A DNA stretch of 64,000 nt, from NCBI GenBank assembly GCA_041916775.1, contig JAYRYZ010000001.1:295825-359824 (forward strand). Reading direction: 5' to 3'. The position numbers and the translations under genes are program-made. Source of the stretch: Rhodocyclaceae bacterium. GTDB taxonomy: Bacteria; Pseudomonadota; Gammaproteobacteria; Burkholderiales; Rhodocyclaceae. The notes under the pieces were generated by a model, which did not search any database, had not been told where the DNA came from, and saw only the letters and a list, made by a program, of their open reading frames with translations. Numbering within the stretch: the first letter of the stretch is position 1; each line of letters begins with the position of its first letter. Shown here piece by piece: positions 24,323 through 45,506 of this stretch.

Positions 24323-25561
24323 ATGCCCGTGAATTACGCCACCCCCGCTCCGTCCGAACTCTTTCCGGTCGCCGGGGTGCGACTCGGCGTCGCCGAGGCA
24401 GGCATCCGCAAGCTCAATCGCCGCGATCTCACGCTCATCGAGCTCGCCGAGGGCAGCCGTGTTGCCGGCGTGTTCACGCTCAACCGCTTCTGTGCCGCGC
24501 CGGTGCAGGTGTGCCGTGCGCATCTGCCGCAGGGCAAGGTGCGCGCGCTGGTGATCAATACCGGGGTCGCGAACGCTGGCACGGGTGAGCCGGGGCTTGC
24601 GAACGCGCTTGCCACCTGTGCGGCTGTCGGCAATCTCATCGGCATCCCGGCCGAGGCGGTGCTGCCGTTCTCCACCGGCGTCATCCTCGAACCTCTTCCT
24701 GTCGATCGCCTCATCGCCGGCTTGCCCGCCGCGCATGCCAATCTCGCTGCAGACGGCTGGCACGCCGCGGCGCACGGCATCATGACCACCGACACGGTGG
24801 CCAAGGCGGTGTCGCGTCAGATCGAGCTGGATGGTCGCACCATCACCATCACCGGCATCAGCAAGGGCGCCGGCATGATCAAGCCGAACATGGCGACCAT
24901 GCTCGGCTTCCTCGCCACCGACGCCTGCGTGTCGCAAGCGCTGCTCGACGGTTTGACCAAGGAAGCAGCAGATCTGTCCTTCAACAGCATCACCATCGAC
25001 GGTGATACCTCCACCAACGACTCCTTCATCGTCATCGCCACCGGCGCCGCCGGCAATGCCGAGATCGCGGATCAAGCCTCCGAGGCCTTCAAGGTGTTGC
25101 GCGAGGCGGTCATCGATGTGTCGGTGAGGCTCGCGCAGGCCATCGTGCGCGACGGCGAGGGCGCGACCAAGTTCATGACCGTCGCGGTGGAAGGCGGCAG
25201 AACGCGCGAGGAGTGCCGCAAGGTGGCGTATGCGATCGGCCATTCGCCGCTGGTCAAGACCGCCTTCTTCGCTTCCGACCCCAACCTCGGGCGCATCCTC
25301 GCCGCGATCGGCTATGCCGGTATCGACGACCTCGACAGCGCCGCGCTGCGCGTGTGGCTTGCGAACGATGCCGAGTCGGTGCTGGTCGCCGAAAAGGGTG
25401 GCCGCGCCGCGAGCTATCAGGAGGAAGCCGGCGCCCGCGTGATGAAGGGGGCCGAGATCACCATCCGCGTCGACCTCGCCCGCGGCGATGCGGCGGCAAC
25501 CGTGTGGACCTGCGATTTCTCGTACGACTATGTGAAGATCAACGCGGATTACCGGTCGTGA
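24323..25561 (+). CDS. argJ: bifunctional glutamate N-acetyltransferase / amino-acid acetyltransferase ArgJ
   Basis: 412 aa; autoproteolytic ATML site ([15 protein letters not shown]) and overall ArgJ architecture; GGAG RBS. Confidence 0.9.
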
Positions 25562-25565
25562 TCGA

Positions 25566-28500
25566 CTATCTCGCCCGATCCCCGCTGCCGGGTGCGTCCG
25601 GACCGCCCGGCAGCAGGCCGCTCATGCGCTCGACCAGGCCGGACAGGCGCTTCATCTCGTCCCACATCGCGTGATCCATGCGCATCTTGCTGTAGGTGGC
25701 GGTGACCAGTGGTGCGATGACCTTCTCGTAGATCTCGTGCATCTCGCGTAGCGTGTCTGTGAGGCAGTCCACATTGGGCGGATCGATCTCGATGTGCGGC
25801 TCGATCGCACGGATGCCGGCGGCGAGCTCCGCCAGCCCTTCTCGCAGGCTGGTTTCGAGCGCTGGTGCGGCGCGCAGGCCTTCCACCGCGCGCGCGATGT
25901 CGAGCAGCGTGCCGGCGATGCGGGTGCTGCCGTCGGTGTCGTCGCCACCCAGCTTGCGCCGGCGCACGAACTCTTCCTTGATCTCCGTCCAGCGGGCCGT
26001 TTCCTCCGCGGTCTGGCTGCCGAGCAGTTCGGCGAGCCGCAGCAGGTTCTCCTCGGCGCCGCTGGTGAGCGTCTGCGCCTCACCGCGGTAGTGGTCGCGC
26101 AGCAACGCATCGAGCTCCTCGTCTCGCATGAGCGGGGTGATCGCGGTGGCGAGCTTGGCCATGTTGCGATAGCTGCCCTGCAGCTTGAATGGCGGCTCGT
26201 TGCGATAGGCGTCGTCCTGGGCGGCCGACTCGATGTAGGCAAGATTCACCTTCAGGAGCAGGTCGCGGGCGCGGAAGAGGCGCTTCACCAGGCTCGCGAG
26301 CTCGTTGAGCTCGGCGCTGCTGTAGCCGTGACTGAAGGCGCTGTCGGCGAGGTCCTCGCCCTCGGCGAGGCGCACCAGGCGATGCACATCGGCCGGGTCG
26401 CGCGAGGCGAGCGGCAGCAGCAGCGGGTTGGCGGTGAGGCTGTTCTCGATGTACGACAGCGCGAAGAGGTCCTCACGCCCGGCGAGGACGTCGCCCAGGT
26501 TGTAGATATCGGCGCGGTTGGCGAGCATGTCGGGGATCTTGAACACGTCGCCGGACTCGGTGTAGGGGTTGCCCGCCATCACCACCGCGAAGCGCTTGCC
26601 GCGAAGGTCGGCGGTCCATGGCGTGCCGTTCTGCACCGCCTCGATGCGGCGCGTGCCGTCGGCGAGCGCGATGAATTTCTGCAGGAACTCCGGGTTGGTG
26701 TGCTGGATGTCATCGAGATAGAGCATCACGTTGTTGCCCATCGCGAGTCCGAGGTTGAGCTTCTCGAGCTCCTGACGGGCGGCGCTGTGGGTGGCGCCGG
26801 CCGGGTCGATGGCGGTGACGTCGTGCCCCAGCGCCGGGCAATTGATGCGTACGAAGATCATGCCGAGGCGGTCGGCGACATACTCCATGAGCGTGGTCTT
26901 GCCGTAGCCTGGCGGCGAGATCAGCAGCAGCAGGCCGGAACGGTCGGAGCGGCTGGCATCGCCCGCGGCGCCGATCTGACGGGCGAGGTTGTTGCCGATG
27001 ATGGGCAGATACACCTCGTCGATGAGGCGGTTGCGCACGAAGGAGGACAGCGGCTTGGCGCGGAACTGGTCGAGCTGCAGGCGACGCTTCTCGTCCGCGA
27101 CGAGTTGCAGGCGCAAGGCCTGGAGGCGTTCGAAGGCGGGCACATGGGTCGCGCGATGCTGGCGGAAGCGGCGCCAGAAATCGTTGAGGTTGAGCGCAAG
27201 CGTGCCGCCTGCGATGCTGGCATGCTCACCCAGGAGGCCGGATACCACCTTGTCTAGCGCGACGTTGAGGCGTTTGCGCTCGCCGCTGCCCAGCCACAGC
27301 GTGGCGGCGTCCGGCACCCACGGCAGCAGCCGGTCGTGCGCCGCGCCTGACGCGTTGGCCGCCTGCTTGTCGGCCTCGGCATCGCGGTGTGCGGCAAAGG
27401 CCGAGAGCCATTGGCGTGCCAGCTGCCAACGCTCGGCCGGTGCAGCGGCTTCGAGGTCTGCACGCAGCTCGGCCAGCCGGGCACTGCGCTCCAGTTGGCG
27501 TTGCAAGTCCTCGCTCAGTGTCGCGCCGCTGCCGGCCACCACCCAGGCCTCATGGCCGCGCGGTTCGGCGATCTGTCGCACCAGGTATTGTGCCGCCTCC
27601 TGCAGCAGGGCCTCGTCCGGGGCGAAGCCGAACCCGGGCGCGAAGGTGGCGAGCTTGCGGGCCGCGTCCTGTTCCGCCTGCCGCAGCGCCGCGTCATGGC
27701 CGAACAGCGCGTGCATCTGCAGCGCGGCGCGCGCCTGGCGCTGCAGGCTGTCGCGGTCCTGCTCGAAGCCGCCGAACTGCCAGTAGCAGAACGCGAGCGC
27801 GCGCGCCTCCGGGCCGTAGGCGAGCAGTTGCGCGTCGGCCTGCATCACGACCAGCGCGCGCAGGAGCCAGGCCGCGTCATGGTCGTGCACACCGCGCTGG
27901 TAGCCTTCCTGATAGCGGCTGGCGCTGCTGCGGCGGACCAGATCGAGGAGCGGATCGTGGCCCTCGGCGGGGCTTGCGCAGAGCGCCTGCAGGCTTGCCC
28001 AGTCGATGTCGCCACGCCCTTCCAGCGCATCGACGAGCAGGCTGCCGGCGAGGTATTCGGCGCGGCAGAGGCCGCCGCTCTCGGAGACCAACGAGACATC
28101 CCACCACGGGCGCAACGCCTCCAGCGCGGCGTCGTTCGCGGGCGCGAAGTAGTCGGTGCCGGTGAGGTGGAAGGCGAGCCCGCCCTGGCGTGGGACCAGG
28201 GTAAGGTCCAGCGTCTGGCGGTTGACGGTGAAGGCGTGGCGGCCGAAGCGCAGCGTATTGCCGTCCTCGGCGACCAGCTCGCGGCGGTCGCGTACCGCGC
28301 GCACCGCCTGGTCGCGTGCGGTACGCAGGCGGGTGTCGAGGTCGTCGGCCGCGACGCTGGCGCCCAGCGCGCGCAGCTCGGCGATCTGGCTGCGGAGCTT
28401 GGTGAGCAGCGGATCACCGGCGAAATAGCTGTGCACCTGCTCCAGCTCGCCGAACTGTGCGATCCGGCGGGGAATGCCTTCCAGCACCCGTGCCGCCGCA

Positions 28501-30860
28501 TCGGCGAGGGCCTGGCTGCGGCGCTGGCGGGCCTCGCTGAGTGTCTGGCGGCGGGCCGCGACGGCTTCCACCAGCGCCTCGCGCTTGTTGGCGAGGGTTT
28601 CGATGAAGCCCTCCTGCTCGGCGAAGCGGCCCTCGATCTCTTCGAGCTGCGCGAGCAGGCGGGTCAGCGCGTCATCGCACTTCTCCGGGGTGTCGGCGAG
28701 CGCCAGCGCGTTCTCCACCGCCTGGCCGAAGAGCTGGATCTGCGCGCCGAACTCGGCGGCGGCTTCGCGGCTGCCGAGCGCACGGCCGAGCTTGCGTGCC
28801 TCGGCGCGCAGGCGATTCACCTCGGCATAGACCGCCCCGATGCCATCGAGGATGCGCGTGCGCAACAGCGCGTCGCCGCCGGGCAGGTTGCCGAGCTGCT
28901 CGGTGAGGAGGTCGAGGCCGCTGCCGGTGTCGTCCAGCAGCTTGACCTGCGCCGCGATCTCGCTGCTGTTCGCAGCCTGCGGCAGGGTGGCGGCGACCTG
29001 CGCGAGGGTGCTGCGGTAGCCGTCGAAGGCGTGCTCTTCCGACAGGAAGCGCAGGGCGCGCTCGGAGACGCGCTGCTGCGCCTCGTCCACCGCGGCTTCG
29101 AGCGCGGCGATACCGGGGATGTCGGCGTAGCGCAGCTCGCGCAGCATCTGCAGCCGTCCGCGTTGCTCGCGCAGCTGGCCGAGGGCGCGGACGAAGTCGT
29201 CCGGCTTCTGCCACAACATGCCGGCGATGCGGGTCATCAGCTCGCGCTGGGCCAGCTCGGCGGTGTCGAGTGCCTGTCGGGTGTCGCGGCGGATGCTCTC
29301 GATCTTCTCGAACTCGTCGAGCGTGTTGCGCGCGCCGTCCTGGATGGCGCGGACATCCTCGGCGAGCTTGCCGGCTTCATCCGAATCCAGCCAGAAGTAG
29401 GCGTCCAGCGCGCGGCCGCAGTGGCGGATGAGCGCGTCGTAGGCGTTGCGGGTCGGCGTCTGCTCGGCCACCGCGCGTGCGATCGCGGTGAGCTCGGCGA
29501 TGCCGCGCACCAGCTCAGGGTTGCCGATGCGGGCGAAGAAGCCCTGGCTGCTGCGCTCGGCGGTGGCGTGCTCCTCGCTCACGTAGGGTGTCTGCCAGAG
29601 CTGCATCGGGTGGTTGCGCGTGGCGTCCGGCCCCTCGGCCTGGAACACCAGCATGCGGCCATCCTCGAAGCGCGCGTAGCCGTTGCAGAGAATGGGCGTG
29701 GTGAGCGACTTCTCGATCAGGTTGTAGGAGAAGAGCGCGTAGTGGCCCACGCCGGGTTGGTAGAACACGTACAGCACGTCCTCGCCATTGGGCGAGCGCA
29801 GCATGCGCTTGAAGCGCAGCCCGTCGCGCATCTCGGCGGGCAGGTCGAAGCGCTTGGTCTCGCCCGACTGCAGGTAGTAGCCGCCGGGAAAGATGATGCC
29901 GTGATCCTCGGGCAGCTGGATGCACGAGCGGCCGATGGCATCGATGCGGGTGGCGGTGAGGGTGCGGGTGTTGAACACCAGGTAGCGCTCGTCCTTCTCG
30001 CGATACGGACGGATGCGCAGGAGGATCAGCGATCCGATGCGGGCGTAGGCGATCTCGGCATCGGTGAGCGACTGGCTCCTGTCCTCGACCGGCTCGGAAT
30101 AGATACCGAGGCCGGATTCGGTGTTGTTCTCGACCTTGATCGTGAGATCACCGCCGATCGTCTCGACGAACACGGTGTCGAGGATGTTCACATGCGGATG
30201 GCGCCCGCCGACATGGTTGTCGCGGGTGGTCTGGGTCCATTCGAAATCGTGCGTCGGGGGCAGGGCGATGTCGCGTTCGCCGCGATTGTCGATGTAGCTC
30301 AGACGCCCGCCCGGTTCGACGCTCCAGCGGAACACGCGCAGGTCGGTCGCCTGCTGGCCGATCTGGAACGCCGCCAGCAGCTTGTGCTGGTGCACACGCA
30401 GCTGGATCAGGCTGGCCTGCCTGTAATAGGTGTAGAGCTCGCGGAAATCGGCGACGAAGCGTGTGTCGTCGAGAAAGCTGCCGGCAATCGGCACGGCGAG
30501 CAGATCCTCGCTGCCCGGGCCGCCTTCCTCGTCCAACCGGTAGAGTCCGAACACGTCCGAGACCGCGGTCTCCTTGCGCAGTCCGATGAAGACGTTGTAG
30601 CCGAACAGCAGCAGGTCGCCGATGCGCACCAGGTCGCGGGCGATGCAGTTGTTCTCGGTACGTGCGCGGGTGCGCCCGATCAGCGCCTGCTCGGCGCGGC
30701 CGAACTCCTCCAGCCGCGCCGTGTTGAGCGCCGTGGTCTTGCGCAGCAGCTGGCCGCCGAGGTCGGTGAGGCGCTTCTTCAGCAGGGCATAGCTGCCGCT
30801 GTCGGCGACGAGCGCCTCGGTGGCGTCGGCTGCAACGGCGGCGCTGGCTTGGTCGGACAT
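25566..30860 (-). CDS. very large (1764 aa) conserved hypothetical protein with one AAA+ ATPase core of MoxR/AAA_5 type near the C-terminal third and long alpha-helical/coiled-coil central region
   Basis: single uninterrupted ORF; Walker A ISPPGYGKTTL, Walker B VMLYLDDIQ, sensor-like VVMAGNPYTESG...ADIY; about 330 aa of helical heptad-like sequence in the middle; antisense 1203-aa ORF judged spurious; last gene of the PspA/flotillin operon. Confidence 0.8.
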   Translation of the reverse strand: MSDQASAAVAADATEALVADSGSYALLKKRLTDLGGQLLRKTTALNTARLEEFGRAEQALIGRTRARTENNCIARDLVRIGDLLLFGYNVFIGLRKETAVSDVFGLYRLDEEGGPGSEDLLAVPIAGSFLDDTRFVADFRELYTYYRQASLIQLRVHQHKLLAAFQIGQQATDLRVFRWSVEPGGRLSYIDNRGERDIALPPTHDFEWTQTTRDNHVGGRHPHVNILDTVFVETIGGDLTIKVENNTESGLGIYSEPVEDRSQSLTDAEIAYARIGSLILLRIRPYREKDERYLVFNTRTLTATRIDAIGRSCIQLPEDHGIIFPGGYYLQSGETKRFDLPAEMRDGLRFKRMLRSPNGEDVLYVFYQPGVGHYALFSYNLIEKSLTTPILCNGYARFEDGRMLVFQAEGPDATRNHPMQLWQTPYVSEEHATAERSSQGFFARIGNPELVRGIAELTAIARAVAEQTPTRNAYDALIRHCGRALDAYFWLDSDEAGKLAEDVRAIQDGARNTLDEFEKIESIRRDTRQALDTAELAQRELMTRIAGMLWQKPDDFVRALGQLREQRGRLQMLRELRYADIPGIAALEAAVDEAQQRVSERALRFLSEEHAFDGYRSTLAQVAATLPQAANSSEIAAQVKLLDDTGSGLDLLTEQLGNLPGGDALLRTRILDGIGAVYAEVNRLRAEARKLGRALGSREAAAEFGAQIQLFGQAVENALALADTPEKCDDALTRLLAQLEEIEGRFAEQEGFIETLANKREALVEAVAARRQTLSEARQRRSQALADAAARVLEGIPRRIAQFGELEQVHSYFAGDPLLTKLRSQIAELRALGASVAADDLDTRLRTARDQAVRAVRDRRELVAEDGNTLRFGRHAFTVNRQTLDLTLVPRQGGLAFHLTGTDYFAPANDAALEALRPWWDVSLVSESGGLCRAEYLAGSLLVDALEGRGDIDWASLQALCASPAEGHDPLLDLVRRSSASRYQEGYQRGVHDHDAAWLLRALVVMQADAQLLAYGPEARALAFCYWQFGGFEQDRDSLQRQARAALQMHALFGHDAALRQAEQDAARKLATFAPGFGFAPDEALLQEAAQYLVRQIAEPRGHEAWVVAGSGATLSEDLQRQLERSARLAELRADLEAAAPAERWQLARQWLSAFAAHRDAEADKQAANASGAAHDRLLPWVPDAATLWLGSGERKRLNVALDKVVSGLLGEHASIAGGTLALNLNDFWRRFRQHRATHVPAFERLQALRLQLVADEKRRLQLDQFRAKPLSSFVRNRLIDEVYLPIIGNNLARQIGAAGDASRSDRSGLLLLISPPGYGKTTLMEYVADRLGMIFVRINCPALGHDVTAIDPAGATHSAARQELEKLNLGLAMGNNVMLYLDDIQHTNPEFLQKFIALADGTRRIEAVQNGTPWTADLRGKRFAVVMAGNPYTESGDVFKIPDMLANRADIYNLGDVLAGREDLFALSYIENSLTANPLLLPLASRDPADVHRLVRLAEGEDLADSAFSHGYSSAELNELASLVKRLFRARDLLLKVNLAYIESAAQDDAYRNEPPFKLQGSYRNMAKLATAITPLMRDEELDALLRDHYRGEAQTLTSGAEENLLRLAELLGSQTAEETARWTEIKEEFVRRRKLGGDDTDGSTRIAGTLLDIARAVEGLRAAPALETSLREGLAELAAGIRAIEPHIEIDPPNVDCLTDTLREMHEIYEKVIAPLVTATYSKMRMDHAMWDEMKRLSGLVERMSGLLPGGPDAPGSGDRAR

Positions 30861-30946
30861 GGTCGTTCGTTTCCGTTGGCGAGGTCGTCACTGAGCGGGC
30901 GCTGGCGGTCGCAGCACCCGCTCCGGATTGCGCATGGCGTGCGCGA

Positions 30947-33055
30947 CTACGGCTTGCCGCGGAAGCCGTCCAGCAGCGTCTGCAGTGCGGCCTTCTGACT
31001 GTCGTTGCCGTCGCGCAGCACCTTGGTCAGGAGTGCAGCGACCGAGAGGTTCTGCAGCTCGCCCGATGCGCCACCCAGCGCGCCGACGATGTCGCGCACG
31101 TCGCTCACCATGTCGCGCTCGCCATCGAGGTGATCCTTCAGGCCGATCTGCAGCGTCTGGCTCTTGGCGATCGCACCGTCTATGCCCTTGCCCACGGACA
31201 GCGCGTTGACGAAGCGGTCGAAGTAATCGCCCTGGCCGCCGACGATGTCGATCTTCGCGTTGGCGAGCGCAGTGCCGAGCACGTCCGCCTGCTCGCGGGC
31301 GATGGAGGTCTGGGCGTCGATGGCCTTGAGGGTCTCGACGTGCGCGTTCTCCAGGCGCATGCGGAATTCCTCGTGGGCGCGGGTGTCCTCGCTCATCGCC
31401 TTCATCGCCTCGAACTTCTCGCGCAGGCCCTTGGCCTCGGCGTTGAAGCGGGCCTCGACCACCTGCGCCTCGGCCAGTCCGATCTTGATCACCGCGTCGG
31501 CGTCGGCCGCCTTGACGCCGACATCGGCAAGCCCCATGCGCTCCTTGCCCTCGGCTTCGGCGCTCAGGCGCGCCTGCAGCGCTTCGGCTTCGGCATGGCC
31601 GTACTTCACCACCGCTTCGGCCTCGGCGATCTTCACCTTGGCATCGACCAGACCCTGCTTCTCGCGGGCGTCGGCGGTCACCATCATGACCTTCGCTTCG
31701 GCAAGACCCTCGGCCGCGGTCATGGCCTCGATGCCCTCTGCTTCGCGCTTCTTCGCCTCCGCCTGCTTCTCGGCGATCTTCAGGCGCGCCTCGGCCATCG
31801 TCAGCTCTTCGGACGCGGCGTGGCGGGCGCGGCGTTCGAGCGCTTCGGCGGCCTTGACCTCCATGATCATCTTTTCCTCGGCCTGGCCTTCGGCGAGAAT
31901 GATGGTCGATTTCTTGGTGCGATCGGCTTCGGCGAGCACGCGCAGCTCCTTGATCGCCTCTTCCTGTTCCGCGACGGTGCGCTCGACCACGATGCGCTCG
32001 CGCACCACGTCGGCGATCGCCTTCTTCTGCACCTCCACCGCACGATCCTTGTCGATGCGCTGCAGAGTGACTTCCTTCTCGCGGTCGACCACCTCCAGCT
32101 CACGTGCGCGGATGACCTTCTCTTCCTCGATCGCCACGGCGCGCAGGCGGTTGTTCTCGGCGACTTCCTTCTCGCGCAGCACGTTCTCCTGCTGCACGGT
32201 GATGAGCTGTTCGGCCTGCAGGCGGGCGAGCTCGGCCTTGGCGTGTTCTTCCGAGCGGATGCGTTGGGTTTCGGCCTGCTCGCGGGCCTTCACCGATTCG
32301 ACCTCGCGGGACTGGCGCGCCTCGGCGTCGGCCTGCTGGCGCTCGAGCTCGAGCAGCGCCTCGCGCGTCTCGACGTCCTTCTTCTTGATCTGCATCTCCT
32401 CGTTGCGACGCAGCTCGTTGGTGCGCACGTTTTCCGCGGCGGTGAGCTCGGTGATCTTCTTGATGCCCTGGGCGTCGAGGATGTTGCTCGGGTCGAGCTT
32501 GGAGAGCGGGGTTTGCTCGAGGTAGTCGATCGCCGCATCCTCCAGCACGTAGCCCGAGAGGTCGTCGCCGATCTGCGCGATGATCTCGTCGCGGAAGCGG
32601 TCGCGCGCCTGATAGAGCTCGACGAACTCCATCGACTTGCCCACCGTCTTGAGTGCCTCGGAGAACTTGGCGGAGAAGAGCTCCTCCAGCGTCTCGGGGT
32701 TGGAGGCGCGGGCGCAGCCGATGCCCTGCGCAACCTTGAGCACGTCCTCGGCGGTCTTGTTCACCCGCACGAAGAACTTCACCTTGATGTCGGCGCGGAT
32801 GTTGTCCTGGCAGATCAGTCCGTCGTGCCCGGTGCGGTCGATCTCGACCGTCTTGAGCGCGATGTCCATCATCTCGGCCTTGTGGATGATGGGATACACC
32901 ATGCGGCCGGTGAAGGTGACGTCCGGCTCGCTGTTGAGGGTGTTGACGATCATTGCGTAGCCTTGCTCGACCTTGCGGTAGAACTTCGCAAGCATCACGA
33001 ACAGGCTGAGCACGATGAAGGCCACGATGCCGGTGACGATCAGGATGAGCTCCAT
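30947..33055 (-). CDS. flotillin-family SPFH (band 7) protein, long form (702 aa) with extended Ala/Glu-rich coiled coil
   Basis: N-terminal TM MELILIVTGIVAFIVLSLFVMLA then SPFH domain (YRKVEQGYAMIV...) then several hundred aa of EA-repeat coiled coil; GGGGA RBS before ATG 33055; YqiK-like. Confidence 0.85.
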   Translation of the reverse strand: MELILIVTGIVAFIVLSLFVMLAKFYRKVEQGYAMIVNTLNSEPDVTFTGRMVYPIIHKAEMMDIALKTVEIDRTGHDGLICQDNIRADIKVKFFVRVNKTAEDVLKVAQGIGCARASNPETLEELFSAKFSEALKTVGKSMEFVELYQARDRFRDEIIAQIGDDLSGYVLEDAAIDYLEQTPLSKLDPSNILDAQGIKKITELTAAENVRTNELRRNEEMQIKKKDVETREALLELERQQADAEARQSREVESVKAREQAETQRIRSEEHAKAELARLQAEQLITVQQENVLREKEVAENNRLRAVAIEEEKVIRARELEVVDREKEVTLQRIDKDRAVEVQKKAIADVVRERIVVERTVAEQEEAIKELRVLAEADRTKKSTIILAEGQAEEKMIMEVKAAEALERRARHAASEELTMAEARLKIAEKQAEAKKREAEGIEAMTAAEGLAEAKVMMVTADAREKQGLVDAKVKIAEAEAVVKYGHAEAEALQARLSAEAEGKERMGLADVGVKAADADAVIKIGLAEAQVVEARFNAEAKGLREKFEAMKAMSEDTRAHEEFRMRLENAHVETLKAIDAQTSIAREQADVLGTALANAKIDIVGGQGDYFDRFVNALSVGKGIDGAIAKSQTLQIGLKDHLDGERDMVSDVRDIVGALGGASGELQNLSVAALLTKVLRDGNDSQKAALQTLLDGFRGKP

Positions 33056-33140
33056 GGTTTCCCCTTTGTGAGGGCCGGCATGCGCCGGCCGGAAAGTGTG
33101 AAGGCGAGGGTGGTGAGAGTCGGTCTTGCGGACGAGGGGG

Positions 33141-33770
33141 TCAGGCCTCGGCCTGCACCCGGTAGCGTGCCGAGGCCGGGTCGTAGTCGATGATGATGGC
33201 CGTGCCACCGCGCTTGAGCGTGTTGGGCGAATCCGCCACGACCCGGATGTTGATCGATGCGCCGCCCGTCTCCACCTCGGCGCGGCCAAAGGATTCATCC
33301 ACCTTGCCGGTGAGGATGCGGCAGCTGCGCCCGACCAGCGAGGCGTTGGAGACTGCGCTGTGGGTGACGAACAGCCGGCGCATCGGGCGGATCGCGATCG
33401 CGGTGAGCGGGATCGACACCGTGATCGCCACGAGCAGCGCCACGGTGCCCGCAACGAGGCTCAGTATCGCGGTGGGAACCAGCGGCAGCAGCCACAGCCC
33501 GGCGGCGCAGGTGATCGTCCAGCCGGTCAGCACGAGCAGGCTGGCGACGATGGAGAACGGTACGCCACCCAGGCCGAAGGCCACCAGCTTCGCGGCGATC
33601 GAGTCGATCTCGCCGAGATCGGCATCTGCGTCGAGCTCGAGCGCAGGACCGCCGTGCTCGAAGTCGACGAGGCCAACCAGGGCCAGCAACCAGTAGATCA
33701 GCACCACCCCGAGCAGCACCGTGTAGATCGCGGCGGGATAGCTGATGACGACATCGGTGAGGCTGGGCAT
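33141..33770 (-). CDS. NfeD-like / YqiJ-like membrane protein (membrane helices + C-terminal OB-fold)
   Basis: 210 aa from Met at 33770; 3-4 hydrophobic helices then soluble beta-rich C-terminus (GRSCRILTGKVDESFGRAEVETGG...), the arrangement seen upstream of flotillin genes (yqiJ-yqiK). Confidence 0.7.
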   Translation of the reverse strand: MPSLTDVVISYPAAIYTVLLGVVLIYWLLALVGLVDFEHGGPALELDADADLGEIDSIAAKLVAFGLGGVPFSIVASLLVLTGWTITCAAGLWLLPLVPTAILSLVAGTVALLVAITVSIPLTAIAIRPMRRLFVTHSAVSNASLVGRSCRILTGKVDESFGRAEVETGGASINIRVVADSPNTLKRGGTAIIIDYDPASARYRVQAEA

Positions 33771-33822
33771 GGTGCGTATGGTCCTGTGTTGCGGCTTCGT
33801 CAGCGGCTTGCGGTGAGCGGCC

Positions 33823-34176
33823 TCACGGTTCGCAGCCTGCATCGGCCGTGTTGCCGGCGCGTGACCGCGCAAAGGCGATCAAGGCCTCGGTGACGCGCTC
33901 CTTGATCGCGAGGCGGTCTTCGGCGGGAAGCCCGAAGCGCGCCGCCAGCAGCTGGTAGTCGGCCTCGGTGAGCGACACCGTGAGGCGCGGGCGCTTGGGT
34001 CGCCGCGTCACCGACAGACCGAGCAGCTGGCGGATCTGGTCCGGCGTCGACAGGTTGCTCTCGAACGCGGCGTGGCGTACCGCCTCCAGCACCGCGTTCT
34101 CGACATCGAAGGCCACCTGCACCGCGCGGATCGCAGCGTCCGAACCCTGCCAGCGGGCGGGTTTGTCGCGACTCAC
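33823..34176 (-). CDS. hypothetical 117-aa soluble protein, translationally coupled to pspA-like gene
   Basis: ATGA stop/start overlap with upstream PspA gene (34173-34176); no recognisable motif. Confidence 0.5.
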   Translation of the reverse strand: MSRDKPARWQGSDAAIRAVQVAFDVENAVLEAVRHAAFESNLSTPDQIRQLLGLSVTRRPKRPRLTVSLTEADYQLLAARFGLPAEDRLAIKERVTEALIAFARSRAGNTADAGCEP

Positions 34177-34874
34177 GCCGCCCCCTGATCCTTGCGTGCG
34201 CGGATGCGGGCCATCACCTGGCGCTTGCGCTCGGCGTCGCCGCCGATGCCGGCGTCGGCGAGCTTGGTCTCGAGCGCGCGGGTTCCGGTCTCCTTGTCCA
34301 ACGTCTCGGCCGCAGCGAGGCGGTCGGCCATCTCCTCGTGGCGGCGCTTGATGCGCTCCAGCGAGTCCTTGGCATTGGAGAGCTTGGAGCCGCTCGCGAC
34401 GATGCTGTCGGAGATCGAGCGGGTGGCCTTGTAGACGCTCTCGGTGGTGCGTGCCATCGCCACCTCGCGCTCGTGCTCGCGCACCTTGGTCTCGGCGGTG
34501 CTGATCATGTCCCTGAGCTTGCCGACCTGCAGGGCGTAATCTGCATGCGCGCGCGTCTGCTCGTCGAGCTCGGCTTCCGTGGCTGCGATCTTTGCGGCAA
34601 CTTCCTCGGCCAGGTCGTCGCGGCTCTTCTCCAGCGCCTCCAGCGCCAGGCCCTCGAGGCGGACGATCTCCTTGCGGATGCGCTCGATCTCGCGGGCGCT
34701 CTGCATCTCCTTCGCCATCACGCCGGTGAGGTCGTTCCTGGCCTTGAGGATGGCGTTGCGTGCGTCGATGATCTCCTGCTCGTAGATGCGGGTGGCGTTG
34801 GCGTCGACCACGCTCTCGCCGATTTCACGTGCGCTGCCGCGCACCAGGGTGAGGATCTTTCCCAAAACGCTCAT
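34173..34874 (-). CDS. PspA/IM30 (Vipp1/ESCRT-III superfamily) phage-shock-protein-A-like protein
   Basis: 233 aa all-helical, MSVLGKILTLVRGSAREIGESVVDANATRIYEQEIIDARNAILKARNDL... typical PspA/IM30 N-terminal helix and coiled coils. Confidence 0.85.
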   Translation of the reverse strand: MSVLGKILTLVRGSAREIGESVVDANATRIYEQEIIDARNAILKARNDLTGVMAKEMQSAREIERIRKEIVRLEGLALEALEKSRDDLAEEVAAKIAATEAELDEQTRAHADYALQVGKLRDMISTAETKVREHEREVAMARTTESVYKATRSISDSIVASGSKLSNAKDSLERIKRRHEEMADRLAAAETLDKETGTRALETKLADAGIGGDAERKRQVMARIRARKDQGAA

Positions 34875-34885
34875 GTTCGCCTCCT

Positions 34886-35302
34886 TCAGGCAAGGTAGTC
34901 CGACAGGGCCTCCAGCGCATCGAGGGCGTTGTCGCTCAGCGCGGCCACGTCCAGTGCGATGTCCTCCATGCGCGCGTCAGCGGACAGGGCGCCGAACAGC
35001 ACGTAGCGGTCATCGACCCTGCCGAACGACGACAAGGGGATGGACACGTTCAGGTCGAGCATCGCCTCGAGAAGCCCGGTACGCTTCGCCGGGGCGACCT
35101 CCAACTCGGTCCATAGGTAGCAGATGCAAAGGATCTGGGCGTCGGAGGTGGTGATGAAGATGGGCAGCTCGTTGCGTCCTTCGATCACCACCTGGATCAC
35201 CGGCACCTCGCCTGCAATGGGCTGCAGCTCGACGCCGACGCCCCCGAGCCTCGCGCCGACCAGTGTGTCTAGCCCTGCGATCCGTTGTTGCAACGTGTTC
35301 AT
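34886..35302 (-). CDS. 138-aa conserved hypothetical, first gene of the operon; tentative match to DUF2170/YjfI family that accompanies PspA-like YjfJ
   Basis: 11 nt upstream of the PspA-like gene; acidic soluble protein; family assignment from memory only, not verifiable here. Confidence 0.5.
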   Translation of the reverse strand: MNTLQQRIAGLDTLVGARLGGVGVELQPIAGEVPVIQVVIEGRNELPIFITTSDAQILCICYLWTELEVAPAKRTGLLEAMLDLNVSIPLSSFGRVDDRYVLFGALSADARMEDIALDVAALSDNALDALEALSDYLA

Positions 35303-35344
35303 CGCCTGTTCTCCCCTGACGTTTAGAAGTGCATCGACATGTGC

Positions 35345-35395
35345 AATCTAGGGAGTCTGACATAAGATGTCAAGACATTTTATGTCAGACTCCCT
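35345..35395 (-). promoter_or_regulatory. sigma70-type promoter TTGACA-N17-TAGATT (minus strand) embedded in a perfect 16-bp inverted repeat AGGGAGTCTGACATAA-N14-TTATGTCAGACTCCCT
   Basis: read on minus strand: TTGACA (35374-35369), 17-nt spacer, TAGATT (35350-35345), about 40 nt upstream of the operon ATG at 35302; IR arms 35350-35365 and 35380-35395; locally AT-rich in GC-rich DNA. Confidence 0.55.
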
Positions 35396-35573
35396 CCGTG
35401 CTGTTCCTGCTTGCCGTCCGCAAACAGCGCTTACGAAAGCCGGGATTATCTCATCGGCATGAACGAAGGTGGCGGAAGAATCGCGTGCGGTATTCCGTTG
35501 GCAAAGTCATTGCGGGTGTCTTTTCGCCTAGGCGGCTGGCAGGGCGCCCGACTGCCGCTGCCGTCCAGCCCGC

Positions 35574-38300
<2,727 letters not shown>

Positions 38301-38319
38301 GCTTGTCCTCCGTGCTTCG

Positions 38320-41300
38320 TCATTCGGCCCCCAGATTGCGCAACATTGTGCCGATGCTGCGCTCCGCGCGCGCGAAGTCGAAGCCGTCGAGCGCTGACAT
38401 GAGGATTCGCCATTCATCCAGGAGCGTTTGCGGCAGTGCGACTGCGATCGCCTCCAGGCGGGCCTCATCCACGAACTCGTGGTTGCGCGCGGCGTCGTGC
38501 AAGGACTTGAGTGCGCGCACCGGGTCGACTGCGGGCGGCACATCGCGCGCGCGCGAAGCTTTCGCGTCAGGCCGCGCCAGCCATGCGCAAATGGCACTGG
38601 TGGTGCGTACCAGGGTCGTCTCGAAGTCTGCGATCGCCTGCGGCGACGGTAGGAGCCCGGACTTGAGTGCCTCGTCGAGCGTCGCTGTTGCCGACGCGAG
38701 CGGGGCAAGTGCCAGGTTGCCTGCAACGCCTTTGAGGCTGTGTGTGTGTTGCTGCAGTGCGGCCCGGGTGGCCGGCGAGGGGGCGGCCGACAGCGCGACG
38801 AGTTGCTGCGGCAAGGCCGCGTAGGTGCCGCGGAGCTGCGTCAGCAGCTCATCCAACAGGCGTTCATACAGGGCTTGGTTGCCGTCCAGCATGGCCACGC
38901 CAAGAGTCGGCGAGAAGAGTGCCTCGACGGCCAGTGTTGCGGATTGCCCGGAAGTAGGCGCGGAACAGGGCCCGGGGACGTCGGCAGGGGGCATCCTCGG
39001 GCCGGCGGACGTCTCTGCCGCTGCGGGTAGCCAGCGCGCGAGCGTGGCATGCAGCGCGACCGGGTCTATCGGTTTGCCGAGGTGATCGTTCATGCCGGCG
39101 GCACGTGCCTTGAGCTTGTCGTCCGACATCACAGCCGCAGTGAGCGCGATCACCGGCAGGGTGAAACCGTGGGCACGTAGCCGGCGAGTCGCCTCGTACC
39201 CGTCCATGATCGGCATCTGGATGTCCATGAGGACCAGATCGAAGCTGCCCTTCTCGGTCTCCTGGAGTGCCTCCCAGCCGTTGCGCGCGGTCACGACTTC
39301 AAGGCCCAGGGCGCGTAGCTGTGCAGTGGCCACCTCCTGGTTGATCGCGTGGTCCTCGACCAGCAGCACCCGGCCGACGAGCCGGCGAAGCGACAGGCCG
39401 TCGCCGGCGCTGCGCGCGAGCAGCGCGCGCATCTCCTCGGCGCTGCAGCGCCCGAGTGCAAGCGTGAAGCTGAAGGCTGCACCCTGGTTGGATGCGCTCG
39501 CGAGTTCGATGCCTTCTCCGCCCATCGCCTCCACCAACCTCTGGCTGATTGCAAGCCCGAGGCCGGTGCCGCCGTGCTCGCGGGTGATGGAGGCGTCTGC
39601 CTGCTTGAATGCCTGGAATAGCCGCGGTTGTTGTGCCGGGTCGATGCCGATGCCGGTGTCGCTGACGCTGAAGCGGAGCCGGTCGGCGACGCCATCCGTC
39701 GAGTCGCACTCCACCTGCACGATGACCTGGCCGTGATCGGTGAACTTGATCGCATTACCGATCAGGTTGGTGAGGATCTGGCGGATCCGAAGTTCGTCGC
39801 CGACGTAGCCCGGTGCAGCCTCGGGCGCTACGACCAGCGCGAGCTGCAGCCCCTTTGCGCTGGCCATGGGTTCGAACAGGTCGCGCAGGGCGTCGATCAG
39901 CACCGCGAGGAAGAAGGGCTGTGGGGCGATCGCCAGTTTGCCCGCTTCGATGCGCGAGAAATCGAGGATGTCGTTGAGGATGCCAAGCAGCAGTTGGCCG
40001 GACTGGTGGATCTTCTGCAGCGCTGCGCGTAGCGCGGCTGGGTCGCGCTCGCCGGCTGCCAGCTGACTGAGGCCGATGATCGCGTTCATCGGCGTGCGAA
40101 TCTCATGGCTCATGTTGGCGAGGAACGCCGACTTGGCCAGGTTGGCCTCGTCTGCCGCCAGCCTGGCGGCCTCGAGCGCGTGTTCGGCTTCCTTCTGCAC
40201 CGTGACGTCGCGACCGCTTCCGCGGTAGCCGGTCAGCGAACCCGCGTCATCCAGCGTCGGGAAGCCGTCCGTGGACATCCACACGATATGCCCGTCCTTA
40301 TGCACGACCGGATTGACCATGCCCTTGATCGACTGCCGCGCCTCCATCAGCTGCATGGCTGTCTGTGCAAACGCGCTACGTCCGGCCTCGGGGTGGAGTT
40401 CGAAGAAGTGCCGTCGGCCGACCAGCTCATCGCGGCGAAAGCCCCACACGGCCTCACAGACGGGGCTTACGTAGGTGTAGAGGCCGTCGCGGTTCACCTC
40501 CCAGCTGACGGTGCCACTCTGCGCGGCGAGTTGCATCAGGCGAAGTTCGTTGTCGGCGATGGCCTGTTGCGCGCGCTTGAGCTCGGAGATGTCCTGCACG
40601 AAGGACCAGATCACCGGCCGGCCTTCGCTGGTGGTGGTGCCGAACCCCTGCACGAGTACCGGGTAGCGGCTGCCGTCCTTTCTGACGAAGGTGCGCTCGA
40701 AGGGGCCGAAGCGCCCGCTTCGCTCGAGCGCCTGGCGCTGCAGCGCCTCCTGGTCTGCATCGCCTGCAGGCGCGATATCGTTGGGGTGGAGCTGTGCGAA
40801 CGCCTCGGCCGTGTATCCGGCGGGTTCGTTGATGGCAGCGTTGAACTCGAGGAGGGCGCCGCTGAGCTGGTCGTTCATCGCAATGCCCACCGGTGCGTTC
40901 TCGAACAGGTTGCGGAACTTGGCCTCGGCGGACTTGAGCTGGGTGATGTTGGTGTGGGTGCCGAGCATGACCGCGGGGCGGCCGTCCTCATCCCACTCGA
41001 CCACGCGTCCGCGGCTCTCGACCCAGACCCACTCGCCGTGTGCGCTGCGCAGGCGAAAGGCGGTGCTGAAGGCGTTGTCGCGCGCGATGCTATCGGTGGC
41101 CTCGTCGAGCACCCGCGCGCGATCCTCCGGATGCAACTGTTCGGTGAACACGGCGATGTCGAGCGTGAAGGCGTCGGGCGGATAGCCGAGCTGGCGGAAG
41201 GCGCGCGCCGACCACTCGACCTTGTCCGAGCGCAGGTCCCAACGCCACATGCCGGTGTCGGAAGCCTCCATCGCGAGTTCCAGGCGCAGCTTGGTGTCTT

Positions 41301-41751
41301 CCAGGGCGAGCTGCTGGAGCTTGCGCTCGGTGATGTCGTAGATGTAGCCGTTCCACAGCGTCGAGCCGTCCATCAGCCGCTCTGGCGTGGCGCGGCCTTG
41401 TAGCCAGCGCTCGCCCTTCGCGGGGTGACGGTAGCGGTACTCGCACTCCCACACCGAGAGGGTCTCGGCGGAGTGGCGGATGCTCTGCGCCACCTCGGCG
41501 AGATCGTCCGGGTGCAGCCCGGCGAACACCGGCGCGGCGGACTCGCGCACGGCTTCGGGTGTCAGCCCGTACATGTCCTCGATGCCTGCCGTGCTGTATG
41601 GAAAGCAGCTGCGGCCATCGGGATACTGGCGGAATTGGTAGAGCATCCCCGGCGTGTTCGCAGCGAGCCGGGAGAGCTGCCGCTTTTGCTCGTGTTCGGC
41701 CGTGCCGTCGGTGTGGGCGCCGCTTGCGCCCTGCGAGTCGAGGTTGGTCAC
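38320..41751 (-). CDS. soluble multi-PAS hybrid histidine kinase: 4x PAS - HisKA - HATPase_c - REC - HPt
   Basis: 1143 aa, no TM; H-box [17 protein letters not shown]; receiver LVLMDIQMP...LGKP; C-terminal HPt [14 protein letters not shown]; GTG start. Confidence 0.85.
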
Positions 41752-41817
41752 GAGGTCCGCCAGAGTGGCGATGCTGCGGACGGGGTGCGGCCGCGTGTTA
41801 CCAGGGTCGTCATGGCG

Positions 41818-44462
41818 TCAGCTATCCTTCGCAAGCTGCGCTCCGCCGGGCAGCGCGTGCCGCCCGGGGGCGGCGATGCCATGTGCGGCGAGCTGCTCGG
41901 GCAGGTCGGGTTCGAGCAGCGGGTGCGCGAACAGGTAGCCTTGTCCGATGGTGCAGCCACTGTGCTCCAGGAACGCGAGCTGTAGCGGCGTCTCGATCCC
42001 CTCCGCGATCGTCTCCAGGCCAATGGTCTGGGCGAGCTGGATGATGGTGCGGCAGATCGCCTCGTCGTTCTGGTCCAGCCCGATGTCTCGGATGAAGGCG
42101 CGGTCGATCTTGAGCGCGTCGATCGGCATGGTGTTGAGATACGCCAGCGATGAATAACCGGTGCCGAAGTCGTCGATCGACAGGCGTACCCCCAGTGCCT
42201 TGAGCATGCGCATCTGCCGCACCGCGAGCTCGGGCTGCTTCATCGCGACCCGTTCGGTCAGCTCGATCTCGAGCAGATGCCCGGGGAGGCCGTGGCGCAG
42301 CAGCGACTCTTGTACCTCGTCCACGAAGTCGTTGCGCCAGAACTGCACGAAGGAGATGTTGACCGCGACGACGAAGTGATCGAGTCCGTGGTCCAGCCAC
42401 GCCTTGCGCTGCAGGATCGCACGATCCAGCACCCAGCGCCCGATCTCGGTGATGAGGCTGGACTCCTCCGCCACCGGGATGAAGGTGTCGGGCGGGATGA
42501 AGTGGCCATCACGCTGCCAGCGCAACAGCGCCTCGACGCCGGTGATGCGGCCGTCCGCAAGGGCGAGCTGGGGCTGGAAGCGCAGGCTCATTTCGTCGCT
42601 GGCGAGCGCGCGCTTGAGACTGATCTCGATCGCGAGCCGCTCGGAGGTGGTCCGTGCCATGTCCTCGTTGAAGTAGCGCCAGCCATTGCGTCCGGCACTT
42701 TTCGCCTGGTACATCGCCATGTCCGCTTGCTGCAGCAGGGTGTCGAAGGCCTTGCTGTCCTGCGGGTAGAGCGCGATGCCGAGCGAGGCCGACACCGACA
42801 CTTCGGTATCACCCACCGCCATTGGCCGACAGATCGCTTGCACCAGGGCGGTGGCGCGGCGATCGAGCTGAGCTTCGCTGAGCCCCTCCAGCAGCACGAA
42901 CTCGTCGCCACCCAGGCGGCAGACGGTGTCGTCCTCGCGCACCAGCGATCGGATCCGTTGCGCCACCTCTTTCAGGATCTCGTCGCCCGCAGCGTGTCCG
43001 AACACGTCGTTGATGGTCTTGAAGCGGTCGAGGTCGATGAAGCACACCGCGAAGCCATTGCCGTTGCGTTCCGCCGAGCGGATCGCCTGGGCGGCGCGGT
43101 CGTGCAGCAGGTAGCGGTTGGGGGTGCCGGTGAGCGGGTCATAGAAGGCGAGCCGCTCGATCTCCTCTTCCGCCATCTTGCGGTGGGTGATGTCGCTGAA
43201 CACGCCGATGTAGTGGGTGACCTCGCCGGCGGTGTTCATGACCCGGCTGATCGACAGCCACTCGGGATATACCTCGCCGGATTTGCGCCGGTTCCAGATC
43301 TCGCCGGCCCATCGGCCGCTCGTCTCGATCGCCCGCCACATCTCGGCGTAGAAGCTCTGCGGATGGCGCCCGGAGGCCAGGATGGAGGGTTTCTCGCCGA
43401 GCACATCGTGTTCCTCGAAGCCGGTGATCTGGCAAAAGGCGTTGTTCACCGAGATGACCCGCTGCTCCGCGTCTGTGATCACGATGCCTTCGGTGCCGGC
43501 GCGATAGATCTGGGCCGCGAGCTCCAGCCGGATGTCCTTCTGGCGGCTCTCGGTGATGTCGGTGGTGATGCCGCCGATACCGAGCACCGCGTTATTCTTG
43601 TCCAGTAAGGGAAACTTGTGGCTCAGGAAGTATCTGACCTCCGCGCCCGGCCGGTGCAGCTTCTCCTCGTAGAGCATGGCCTGGCGGTTGCTCATCACCA
43701 AGCGGTCGTTCTGCTCGTGTTGCTCGGCATCCTGTGTGGGCAGCCAGCCGGTGCGGCGCCGGCCGATCAGCTCCGATTCGTTTTGGCCAACGAGCTTCTG
43801 CAGCGCCTTGTTCGCGAGTAGGCACCTGCCCTCCGGGTCGAACGCGTAGATCAGGGCGTCGCTGTTGTTCAGCACGGTCGAGAAGATGCTGCGGGTGCGC
43901 GACAGCTCGGAGTCCGCGGTGCGGTCGAGGCACAGCGCGAGGTAGTGGGCGTCGAGGTGGTAGTCCTGCGGCAGCAGGCACAGATGCACCTCCATGTGGC
44001 GCTCCTCGCCCTCGTGGCCGCGGAAGGCGAGATCGAGCGGGCTGCGGTTGACGGGCGTGGTCGTGGCGCGCAGCCTCGCGATCAGCGCTGCTGCACCGTC
44101 GTGCAGCACGAGGCGCAGCAGCGAGTGCTGCCGCAGCGTTTGCACGCTGCTGAAGCCGAAGACCTTCGCGGCAGCCTCGTTGGCCTCCTCGACGATGCCA
44201 CGATCGTCTATGACGAGTGCGGGCATGGGCAGGGCGGTGAATAGCAGCTGGTAGCGACGGCGTACGCTCTCTTCCGCGAGTCGGGACGCGATCAGCTCCT
44301 GGTTCTGGATATCGAGCTCGGCGTGATACACACGCAACTCGTGCATGAATTCGCCGAAATCTGCAGCAGCGCCCTCGTCCAGCCGGCCGATGCCGGCCTC
44401 GCCGCGCGACAGCGCCCGCTCTGCGCGCAGGCGCAGGGTGTCGACCCGGGAGCGGCTTTCAC

Positions 44463-44466
<4 letters not shown>
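41818..44466 (-). CDS. PAS(x3)-GGDEF-EAL c-di-GMP turnover protein
   Basis: 882 aa from ATG 44466 (ATGA overlap with upstream gene); GGDEF motif RLGGDEF; EAL motifs EALLRW and DDFGTGYSS. Confidence 0.85.

Positions 44467-45506
<1,040 letters not shown>

Follow-up and report, generated by a model that had tools for sequence, protein, structure and literature searches.

What does a giant AAA+ protein do when its gene follows those of a PspA-type protein and a flotillin? This question is raised by a block of six genes (here called G1 to G6) on the minus strand, at positions 25566-35302, of a 64,000-nucleotide (nt) stretch from a Rhodocyclaceae bacterium (contig JAYRYZ010000001.1). We refer to the whole stretch as the window. 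An initial annotation proposed that the block links the giant protein (G6) to two modules, PspA of the yjfIJ type and flotillin of the yqiJK type, and that the result might be an undescribed system. The homologies and the gene linkage presented below support the joining of the two modules. The system itself has been described: the same combination is found in the published comparative work of Ravi et al. 2024 (PMC11237479), in the passages cited here, and its Pseudomonas counterpart is the bac operon. It is rather probable that the block is a betaproteobacterial (Rhodocyclales-like) member of this published class of PspA-flotillin-AAA+ envelope-stress operons and a counterpart of bacABCDE. It would consist of a core triad (G4-G5-G6) and an added module, with G6 remodelling flotillin and PspA polymers and G3 acting as a repressor.

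Relation to published operons

The class reported by Ravi et al. 2024 (mSystems, PMC11237479) comprises, according to the passages used here, a CesT/Tir (DUF2170)-PspA pair, a transmembrane (TM)-band-7-flotillin protein, a 'novel AAA+ ATPase' and a YqiJ/YuaF-type protein with three TM segments. The same passages mention a phospholipase D (PLD; HKD) hydrolase added in some Proteobacteria and abbreviated flotillin-YqiJ(-AAA+) operons that are more widespread. Both the PLD addition and the wider spread of the abbreviated operons are reproduced in the set of 80 loci analysed below. In the window, a DUF2170 gene (G1) is followed, 11 nt downstream, by a YjfJ-type pspA gene (G2), as in the published class.

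In Pseudomonas aeruginosa, the counterpart is bacABCDEF, the 'biofilm-associated cluster' (PA3732-PA3727 / PA14_16140-16200; Macé 2008, PMC2587700; PMC10948618). Reverse transcription PCR (RT-PCR) across every junction has identified these genes as a six-gene operon in PA14 (PMC10948618). The crystal structure of BacA is similar to that of type III secretion system (T3SS) chaperones, a bacA mutant over-produces BacB-F, and the published phenotypes of bac mutants concern biofilm, rhamnolipids and virulence. Phage infection induces PA3728-PA3732, and PA3728 is listed as an ATPase. The window genes can be tied to these reports because the Pseudomonas loci retrieved with a G6 profile have the order G1-G2-G4-G5-G6, which is that of bacABCDE, and because their G1 passes the NCBIfam BacA model (328-348 bits for a cut-off of 300, positions 1-206).

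Conservation of the gene neighbourhood

The G6 search profile was built from 22 diverse relatives and finds matches in at least 585 species genomes. Neighbourhoods were analysed for the best-scoring 80 of the at least 585 loci, each with 10-kb flanks. The window proteins served as queries against all six-frame open reading frames (ORFs) of the set, with phmmer and two profile rounds. The set spans Beta-, Gamma- and Zetaproteobacteria, Myxococcota, Actinomycetota and Acidobacteriota, and includes one metagenome-assembled genome labelled Clostridia.

A G5 homologue lies directly 5' of G6, on the same strand, in 76/76 informative loci (four loci with less than 300 nt of upstream DNA were not counted). 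A G4 homologue precedes G5 in 72/72 informative loci, the remaining loci being cut by contig ends. The DUF2170-PspA pair (G1 and G2) is present in 33/72 loci, all of them proteobacterial. The other 39/72 carry no PspA-like ORF within 10 kb, even at E <= 10, and these include all the sampled loci from Actinomycetota, Myxococcota and Acidobacteriota. Since linkage within the triad is complete (72/72 and 76/76) and that of G1-G2 is not (33/72), the system is modular, with an invariant G4-G5-G6 triad and an optional proteobacterial DUF2170/PspA module. The co-occurrence of the giant gene with SPFH genes in other genomes, whose absence would have spoken against the initial annotation, is very strong, while co-occurrence with PspA holds for the 33 loci where the genes are adjacent but not for the 39 others. 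This quantified tie of the ATPase to flotillin and YqiJ, rather than to PspA, redirects the search for its substrate.

In two Marinobacter loci (L065 5536-7018 and L070 5483-7109), G1-G2-G3 is divergent from G4-G5-G6, which makes the PspA module and the flotillin/AAA+ module separable units. Both loci carry the sequence GACAT-N3-ATGTC 5' of G1, either within the intergenic region common to both modules or at its border.

The genes directly 3' of G6 vary. They encode a PLDc_2 (HKD) protein in 13 loci, a rhomboid protein in 7 and TelA in 9 Xanthomonadales loci (examples of such downstream genes are L005 15193-15885, L020 15253-15819 and L059 16059-17216). None of the three follows G6 in the window. 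On a Denitromonas halophila contig (L084 9171-9963), two extra genes (79 and 182 amino acids (aa), neither with a Pfam match) separate the flotillin and ATPase genes, and a PLDc_2 gene follows the ATPase gene.

Architecture of the giant ATPase

Pfam identifies a DUF3686 N-terminal domain, a DUF7902 segment and an AAA+ core in G6 (Table 1). The DUF7902 segment sits in a region of about 700 aa, roughly aa 500-1200, whose composition profile favours helices. The protein has no TM segment and is soluble. Within the AAA+ core, Walker A reads GYGKT (1318-1322) and Walker B reads LYLDD (1380-1384; window 26706-26720), with a probable sensor-1 residue at N1431 and a probable arginine finger at R1449. 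Both motifs and both residues are invariant in the 22 diverse members, whose overall identity to G6 is 32-53%. Relatives in other phyla, including Actinomycetota, are 56-78% identical to G6 in the AAA+ region. The conservation of the core and the invariant motifs argue for a working nucleotide-dependent machine. In all 22 members LYLDD is followed by IQH, a stretch which we take to resemble LIDDIQF of DnaA.

A fusion created during assembly, which the initial annotation had considered for so long an ORF, was ruled out because more than 6,286 clusters of homologues share the same architecture (those listed measure about 1,650-1,820 aa); the occurrence in at least 585 species genomes agrees with this, and the giant ORF is genuine. 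For the N-terminal DUF3686 domain alone, the family comprises 732 cluster representatives at 50%. No relative of this domain with a solved structure was found in the PDB by sequence or profile searches, and searches of the literature found no papers on DUF3686 and none on the biochemistry of the giant ATPase. NCBI gives G6 the product name 'DNA repair ATPase', which is a database name only. The N-domain of G6-type proteins is called a beta-propeller in the passages used here of Ravi et al. 2024 (PMC11237479).

Partner proteins

G4 has no Pfam match and no BLAST similarity to YqiJ. A profile of its 45-member family does align with Escherichia coli YqiJ (hhalign probability 93%, E 3e-7, 132 collinear columns), and the Pfam models YqiJ_N and YqiJ_OB give weak matches in 2 and 1 of the 45 members, respectively. 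The protein has hydrophobic segments between approximately residues 4 and 130, a C-terminal soluble part and the length of YqiJ (209 aa). G4 is accordingly placed, by predicted topology and profile comparison, as a polytopic YqiJ/NfeD-like membrane protein, the YqiJ/YuaF-type component of the class.

G5 aligns with E. coli YqiK in BLASTP (28% identity over 459 aa, residues 5-446, E 3e-37). Its homologues are labelled 'flotillin family protein / YqiK' in the source databases, and it has one TM-like segment at residues 1-29. Because of these three features we assign G5, as judged from its sequence, to a divergent and longer form of YqiK-type flotillin, with an N-terminal anchor, a putative divergent SPFH region and a very long predicted coiled coil. 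As such it would be the band-7/coiled-coil/flotillin component. An AlphaFold2 (AF2) model of low confidence places long helices at residues 216-599. Pfam Band_7 and Flot are both present in E. coli YqiK itself. The subfamily of flotillins of about 700 aa to which G5 belongs (76-91% identity among Betaproteobacteria) lacks Band_7 and Flot matches nearly throughout, with a Band_7 match in 1/120 listed clusters.

G1 belongs to Pfam DUF2170 (E 3.8e-30), for which the literature gives a CesT/T3SS-chaperone-like fold, and shares 43% identity with E. coli YjfI in its C-terminal part. At 138 aa it is short and lacks the N-terminal domain of Pseudomonas BacA. Compared with the NCBIfam BacA equivalog NF050185, it scores 52 bits for a cut-off of 300 and covers model positions 84-202 only, so that it falls outside the equivalog. 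G2 matches Pfam PspA_IM30 over residues 3-228 (E 2e-32; 113 bits for a gathering threshold of 33.9) and is 29% identical to E. coli YjfJ over its full length (E 1e-22). These matches classify G2 as a YjfJ-type PspA/IM30 protein of the ESCRT-III superfamily.

Regulation of the operon

The predicted operator 5' of G1 (Table 1) contains two copies of GACAT-N3-ATGTC, a sequence without further copies in the 64-kb window (0.04 expected). Its presumed ligand is G3, the small protein encoded between G2 and G4. The G3 family comprises 504 protein clusters. Among the loci analysed, G3 is found in 13, beside PspA in 12 and after G6 in one (Methylomonas L026).

G3 is probably a ribbon-helix-helix (RHH) protein. 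It consists of two beta-alpha-alpha-like (RHH-like) halves, and single members of the family weakly match Pfam RHH_1 (E 7.6e-4), RHH_10, RHH_9 and RHH_5. When compared by hhalign with an approximate CopG sequence, the N-terminal half aligns in register (E 5.8e-4, probability 29%). Two homologues are named CopG-domain proteins in UniRef. We predict that G3 is a DNA-binding autoregulator.

Two mutually exclusive operon designs can be distinguished among the 33 loci with G1 and G2. In class A (13 loci), G1 is short (about 138 aa), G3 is present and the operator 5' of G1 is GACAT-N3-ATGTC. In class B (20 loci), G1 is the long BacA form (about 206 aa), G3 is absent and most loci have the operator T[TC]ACATGT[GA]A, usually in two copies about 23 bp apart. 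In 1.76 Mb, 17/18 occurrences of the class A motif fall in class A loci, 16 of them just 5' of G1; for the class B motif, 29/30 occurrences are in class B loci and 28 are just 5' of G1. This co-variation of G3 with the operator gives indirect support for DNA binding by G3. The class B loci are L020-L022, L027-L028, L030-L033, L035-L037, L039, L041-L042, L048, L053-L055 and L076.

In the long BacA proteins the first 55 aa or so form a basic, conserved domain (consensus KSSAHYQRLFRQRLREQGLVKKEVWILPE), with weak MazE-like (PF11455) matches in 6/14 members. This domain may be a DNA-binding autorepressor, a candidate whose predicted target is TTACATGTGA, present twice. Two other interpretations of this extension were rejected. 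It is not detectably homologous to G3 (hhalign probability 0.1%), and the long G1 ORFs are not over-extended gene calls, as the N-terminal 55 aa or so are conserved across genera and covered by the NCBIfam BacA model.

G3 and the BacA N-domain are thus predicted to be two alternative autorepressors of the same operon. Autorepression by the BacA N-domain may explain why BacB-F are over-produced in the P. aeruginosa bacA mutant; a polar or transposon-promoter effect may also account for that proteome. The pairing of each regulator with its operator appears to be a new detail. It provides a testable regulatory model in which G3 or the BacA N-domain acts, each at its own defined operator.

Function of the operon and alternative explanations

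In the following scheme, all protein-protein contacts, what the ATPase acts on and the binding of G3 to DNA are inferred. G3, bound to both GACAT-N3-ATGTC sites over the -35 box, would keep the operon off, and membrane damage would derepress it. G4 and G5 would form an SPFH/flotillin assembly on the inner membrane, and PspA (G2), handled by G1, would coat or repair the damaged bilayer. G6 would dock on the flotillin assembly through its N-domain and helical region and, through that assembly, on PspA. Both polymers are otherwise very stable, and G6 would spend ATP on remodelling, opening or recycling them.

Judged by its gene linkage and domain content, G6 would most likely use ATP to remodel or recycle the flotillin/YqiJ assembly, and PspA would be an optional client. 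A role of the operon in membrane remodelling or repair, as put forward in the initial annotation, is a sensible reading that published comparative work shares; the suggestion of defence made alongside it found no match among known defence models. G6 is an obvious candidate for the disassembly or recycling of bacterial PspA and flotillin polymers, and it occurs in at least 585 species genomes. This candidacy is already in the literature, and the window adds no new kind of system.

A wider proposal can be made, although only tentatively. According to a 2025 review, a Vps4-like ATPase appears to be absent in bacteria. The DUF3686-AAA+ giant could possibly fill this gap as a non-homologous protein. 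It would then be the first ATP-driven protein dedicated to opening, disassembling or recycling SPFH/flotillin assemblies in bacteria. This activity would be coupled to ESCRT-III-like polymers where PspA is present, and the operon would be controlled in different lineages by two non-homologous autoregulators, each with an operator of its own.

A number of observations weigh against the preferred explanation. The second acidic residue of Walker B is Asp in 22/22 members, in place of the usual catalytic Glu, which might point to a slow, switch-like ATPase and not to a motor. When the AAA+ region of G6 is compared with the PDB, matches are limited to about 35-68 residues around Walker A, and we found no experiment on, or structure of, a G6-type protein from any organism. 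G5 matches no Pfam family even at E 10, hence neither Band_7 nor Flot, and sequence and profile searches of the PDB gave no match to it. Its AF2 model, built from a 28-sequence alignment, has a mean predicted local distance difference test score (pLDDT) of 58, falling below 50 over the putative SPFH region. For G3, the Pfam RHH matches are weak and the AF2 model is all-helical (pLDDT 62). A sigma-54 promoter has been proposed for the P. aeruginosa bac operon by its authors (PMC10948618); set against the sigma-70-type promoter of the window, this implies that regulation differs between lineages. Finally, more distant members of the G6 family, beyond the best 80 loci, might break the linkage with flotillin.

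Four other explanations were considered. In the first, G6 is a functional bacterial analogue of Vps4 whose primary substrate is the PspA (ESCRT-III) polymer, the flotillin being a mere platform. PspA and G6 are indeed encoded in one operon here and in 33 related loci, and the same analogy is drawn for PspA-linked AAA+ proteins in the passages used here of Ravi et al. 2024 (PMC11237479). The Vps4-like role is, as noted above, unfilled in bacteria, and the best PDB matches of G6, though weak, are classical AAA proteins (Rix7, NVL, p97 and Rpt). We nevertheless regard this explanation as rather unlikely. The ATPase is linked to flotillin first, which weakens the case for a 'Vps4 for PspA': linkage to an ESCRT-III-type protein is not obligate, given the 39/72 informative loci without a PspA-like ORF, and in Marinobacter the PspA module is divergent from G4-G6. 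G6 has no Pfam MIT or Vps4_C domain (E <= 0.01). On direct reading, the segment after the Walker A strand, ALGHDVTAIDP, contains no aromatic-hydrophobic-Gly pore loop, and Vps4 is not among the 60 best PDB matches. Of the ESCRT-III/Vps4 analogy drawn in the initial annotation, the pairing of an ESCRT-III-superfamily protein with an AAA+ protein in one operon stands, but the analogy is weakened by the linkage, the domain content, the restriction of classical-AAA similarity to the Walker A neighbourhood and the pore-loop segment.

In the second, G6 is a nucleotide-gated scaffold or switch and not a motor. It would sense the state of the membrane or of the flotillin through its N-domain and recruit or release partners (for example, PspA, a PLD-type hydrolase or a rhomboid protein). 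The presence of DD rather than DE in Walker B, throughout the 22 diverse members, makes this a live alternative. The very long helical region of a protein without TM segments also fits a scaffold, as do the differing effector-like genes found directly after G6 (PLDc_2, rhomboid and TelA, in the numbers given above). The invariant probable sensor-1 residue and arginine finger and the extreme conservation of the AAA+ core are, however, typical of active oligomeric ATPases, and in the window G6 is followed by no effector gene, only by argJ, which is convergent and 4 nt away. These points make a pure switch improbable.

An anti-phage defence, or abortive infection through membrane disruption, is very unlikely. 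It could draw on the phage induction of PA3728-PA3732, on the non-syntenic positions of the cassette in close relatives and on the PLD-family gene added in some loci. Phage induction is, however, expected of any phage-shock-type envelope-stress system. PADLOC-DB 2.0 gives only weak coiled-coil or P-loop matches (E 1.7e-4 to 7.6e-3), the genes around it in the window serve housekeeping and signalling, not defence, and the mutant phenotypes published for bac (biofilm, rhamnolipids, virulence) lie elsewhere.

That G6 is a DNA-repair ATPase and a chance neighbour of membrane-protein genes, as the Pfam description of DUF3686, the NCBI product names and weak Rad50 and RuvB matches (E 8e-4 to 5e-3, far below curated cut-offs) would have it, has almost no probability, given that G6 is invariably linked, across phyla, to flotillin and YqiJ-like genes, that clustering of the flanks reveals no conserved DNA-metabolism gene (the only nuclease-like candidate is the PLD-family gene of 13 loci), and that Rad50 is matched within the coiled coil and RuvB over the P-loop only.

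Gene layout and surroundings

All six minus-strand ORFs were found again by an independent gene caller, which lists the same six products on a public contig that carries an identical giant protein. The genes are co-directional, as initially annotated. The short spacing also stands: reading from the sequence, the 11-nt spacer between G1 and G2 includes an AGGAGG ribosome-binding site, and the G3-G4, G4-G5 and G5-G6 spacers measure 52, 85 and 86 nt. The translational coupling is slightly different from that proposed, as the four nucleotides shared by the G2 stop and the G3 start read GTGA and not ATGA.

A consensus scan for sigma-70-like sites found the promoter in Table 1 as the only one on either strand in 25000-36000 (0.6 expected by chance), which agrees with the single promoter proposed for the block and provides no separate promoters for individual genes. 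The predicted 5' untranslated region up to the G1 ATG is about 35 nt long and includes a GGGGAG ribosome-binding site. In the same interval there is no intrinsic-terminator-like site on the operon strand, and an Rfam scan of the operon and its spacers detected no known RNA. Co-transcription of the six genes is consistent with the short spacers and the single promoter-like site, and the description of G1-G6 as one operon-like block is supported.

Table 1. Positions of the genes, domains and regulatory features of the block in the window
Feature	Position	Strand	Details
G1	34886-35302	minus	138 aa
G2	34173-34874	minus	233 aa
G3 (orf117)	33823-34176	minus	117 aa, GTG start
G4	33141-33770	minus	209 aa
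G5	30947-33055	minus	702 aa
G6	25566-30860	minus	1764 aa
DUF3686 N-terminal domain of G6	29394-30749	minus	aa 38-489; Pfam E 1e-197
DUF7902 segment of G6	28791-29033	minus	aa 610-690; Pfam E 5.6e-21
AAA+ core of G6	26541-26942	minus	aa 1307-1440; Pfam AAA, AAA_22, AAA_5
Sigma-70-type promoter	35373-35345	minus	TTGACA-17 nt-TAGATT; 10/12 consensus positions; just 5' of G1
Near-perfect palindrome, predicted operator	35350-35395	.	46 nt; arms 22 nt, 95% complementary
Tandem GACAT-N3-ATGTC sites	35359-35371, 35374-35386		13 bp each; junction forms the -35 box

The initial annotation placed the block between argJ and apaG. The argJ gene does adjoin it (plus strand, ending at 25561 and convergent with G6, which ends at 25566, with 4 nt between the stop codons), but no apaG could be located as far as position 47 kb. 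At the point of convergence, window 25559-25568, there is no terminator-like hairpin. The impression of an accessory region agrees with two related Rhodocyclales contigs, in which the same six-gene cassette is surrounded by unrelated genes.

Immediately upstream, several signalling genes follow one another on the strand of the operon (window 35574-47252, minus). They encode a PAS-histidine kinase (HK)-response regulator (RR)-RR-GGDEF protein, a PAS hybrid HK with Hpt, a PAS-GGDEF-EAL protein, a PAS protein and a CheB-CheR fusion. In the gap of about 200 nt that separates the first of these genes from the operon, no terminator was found, so that read-through from that gene is possible.

Comparison with known systems

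The Bacillus subtilis systems pspA-ydjGHI (SamGHI) and yuaFG/floT resemble the block, in the parts of the published accounts used here, by the functional coupling of an SPFH protein with PspA at the membrane and by an NfeD/YuaF-type partner encoded 5' of the flotillin gene. They include no AAA+ ATPase and no DUF2170 protein.

ESCRT-III and Vps4 of archaea and eukaryotes share with the block the encoding of an ESCRT-III-superfamily gene with an AAA+ gene, and a role in membrane remodelling is plausible. G6 differs in lacking MIT, Vps4_C and a Vps4-type pore loop, in being ten times larger than its AAA+ core, and in being tied genomically to flotillin and not to PspA.

In E. coli the homologous genes occur as two separate pairs. 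G1, G2 and G5 are homologous to YjfI, YjfJ and YqiK, respectively, and G4 is distantly related to YqiJ. However, yjfIJ and yqiJK are about 1.2 Mb apart, and neither has a DUF3686-AAA+ partner beside it. G5 is also 150 aa longer than YqiK and lies outside the Pfam Band_7 and Flot models.

As for the P. aeruginosa bac operon, Pseudomonas loci whose first gene passes the NCBI BacA model encode a DUF2170 protein, PspA, a YqiJ-like protein, a flotillin of about 700 aa and a giant DUF3686-AAA+ protein in the same order. The window differs in several respects. G1 is short, lacks the basic N-terminal domain and fails the BacA equivalog; G3 is inserted between the PspA and YqiJ-like genes; and no bacF-like gene follows G6, where Pseudomonas loci have PLDc_2 and/or rhomboid genes. 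The regulatory signals also differ: sigma-70-type with GACAT-N3-ATGTC in the window, as against the sigma-54 proposed for P. aeruginosa and T[TC]ACATGT[GA]A in the sampled Pseudomonas-type loci.

The class of Ravi et al. 2024 (PMC11237479), as presented in the passages used here, has a domain inventory identical to that of the window operon. Those passages mention neither G3 nor the operators, and refer to an RHH factor only for a different, spermidine-synthase operon. To this published class the present analysis adds a quantification of the strict, 100% linkage of the ATPase to flotillin and YqiJ, and a variant locus that combines a short BacA with a small regulator encoded separately.

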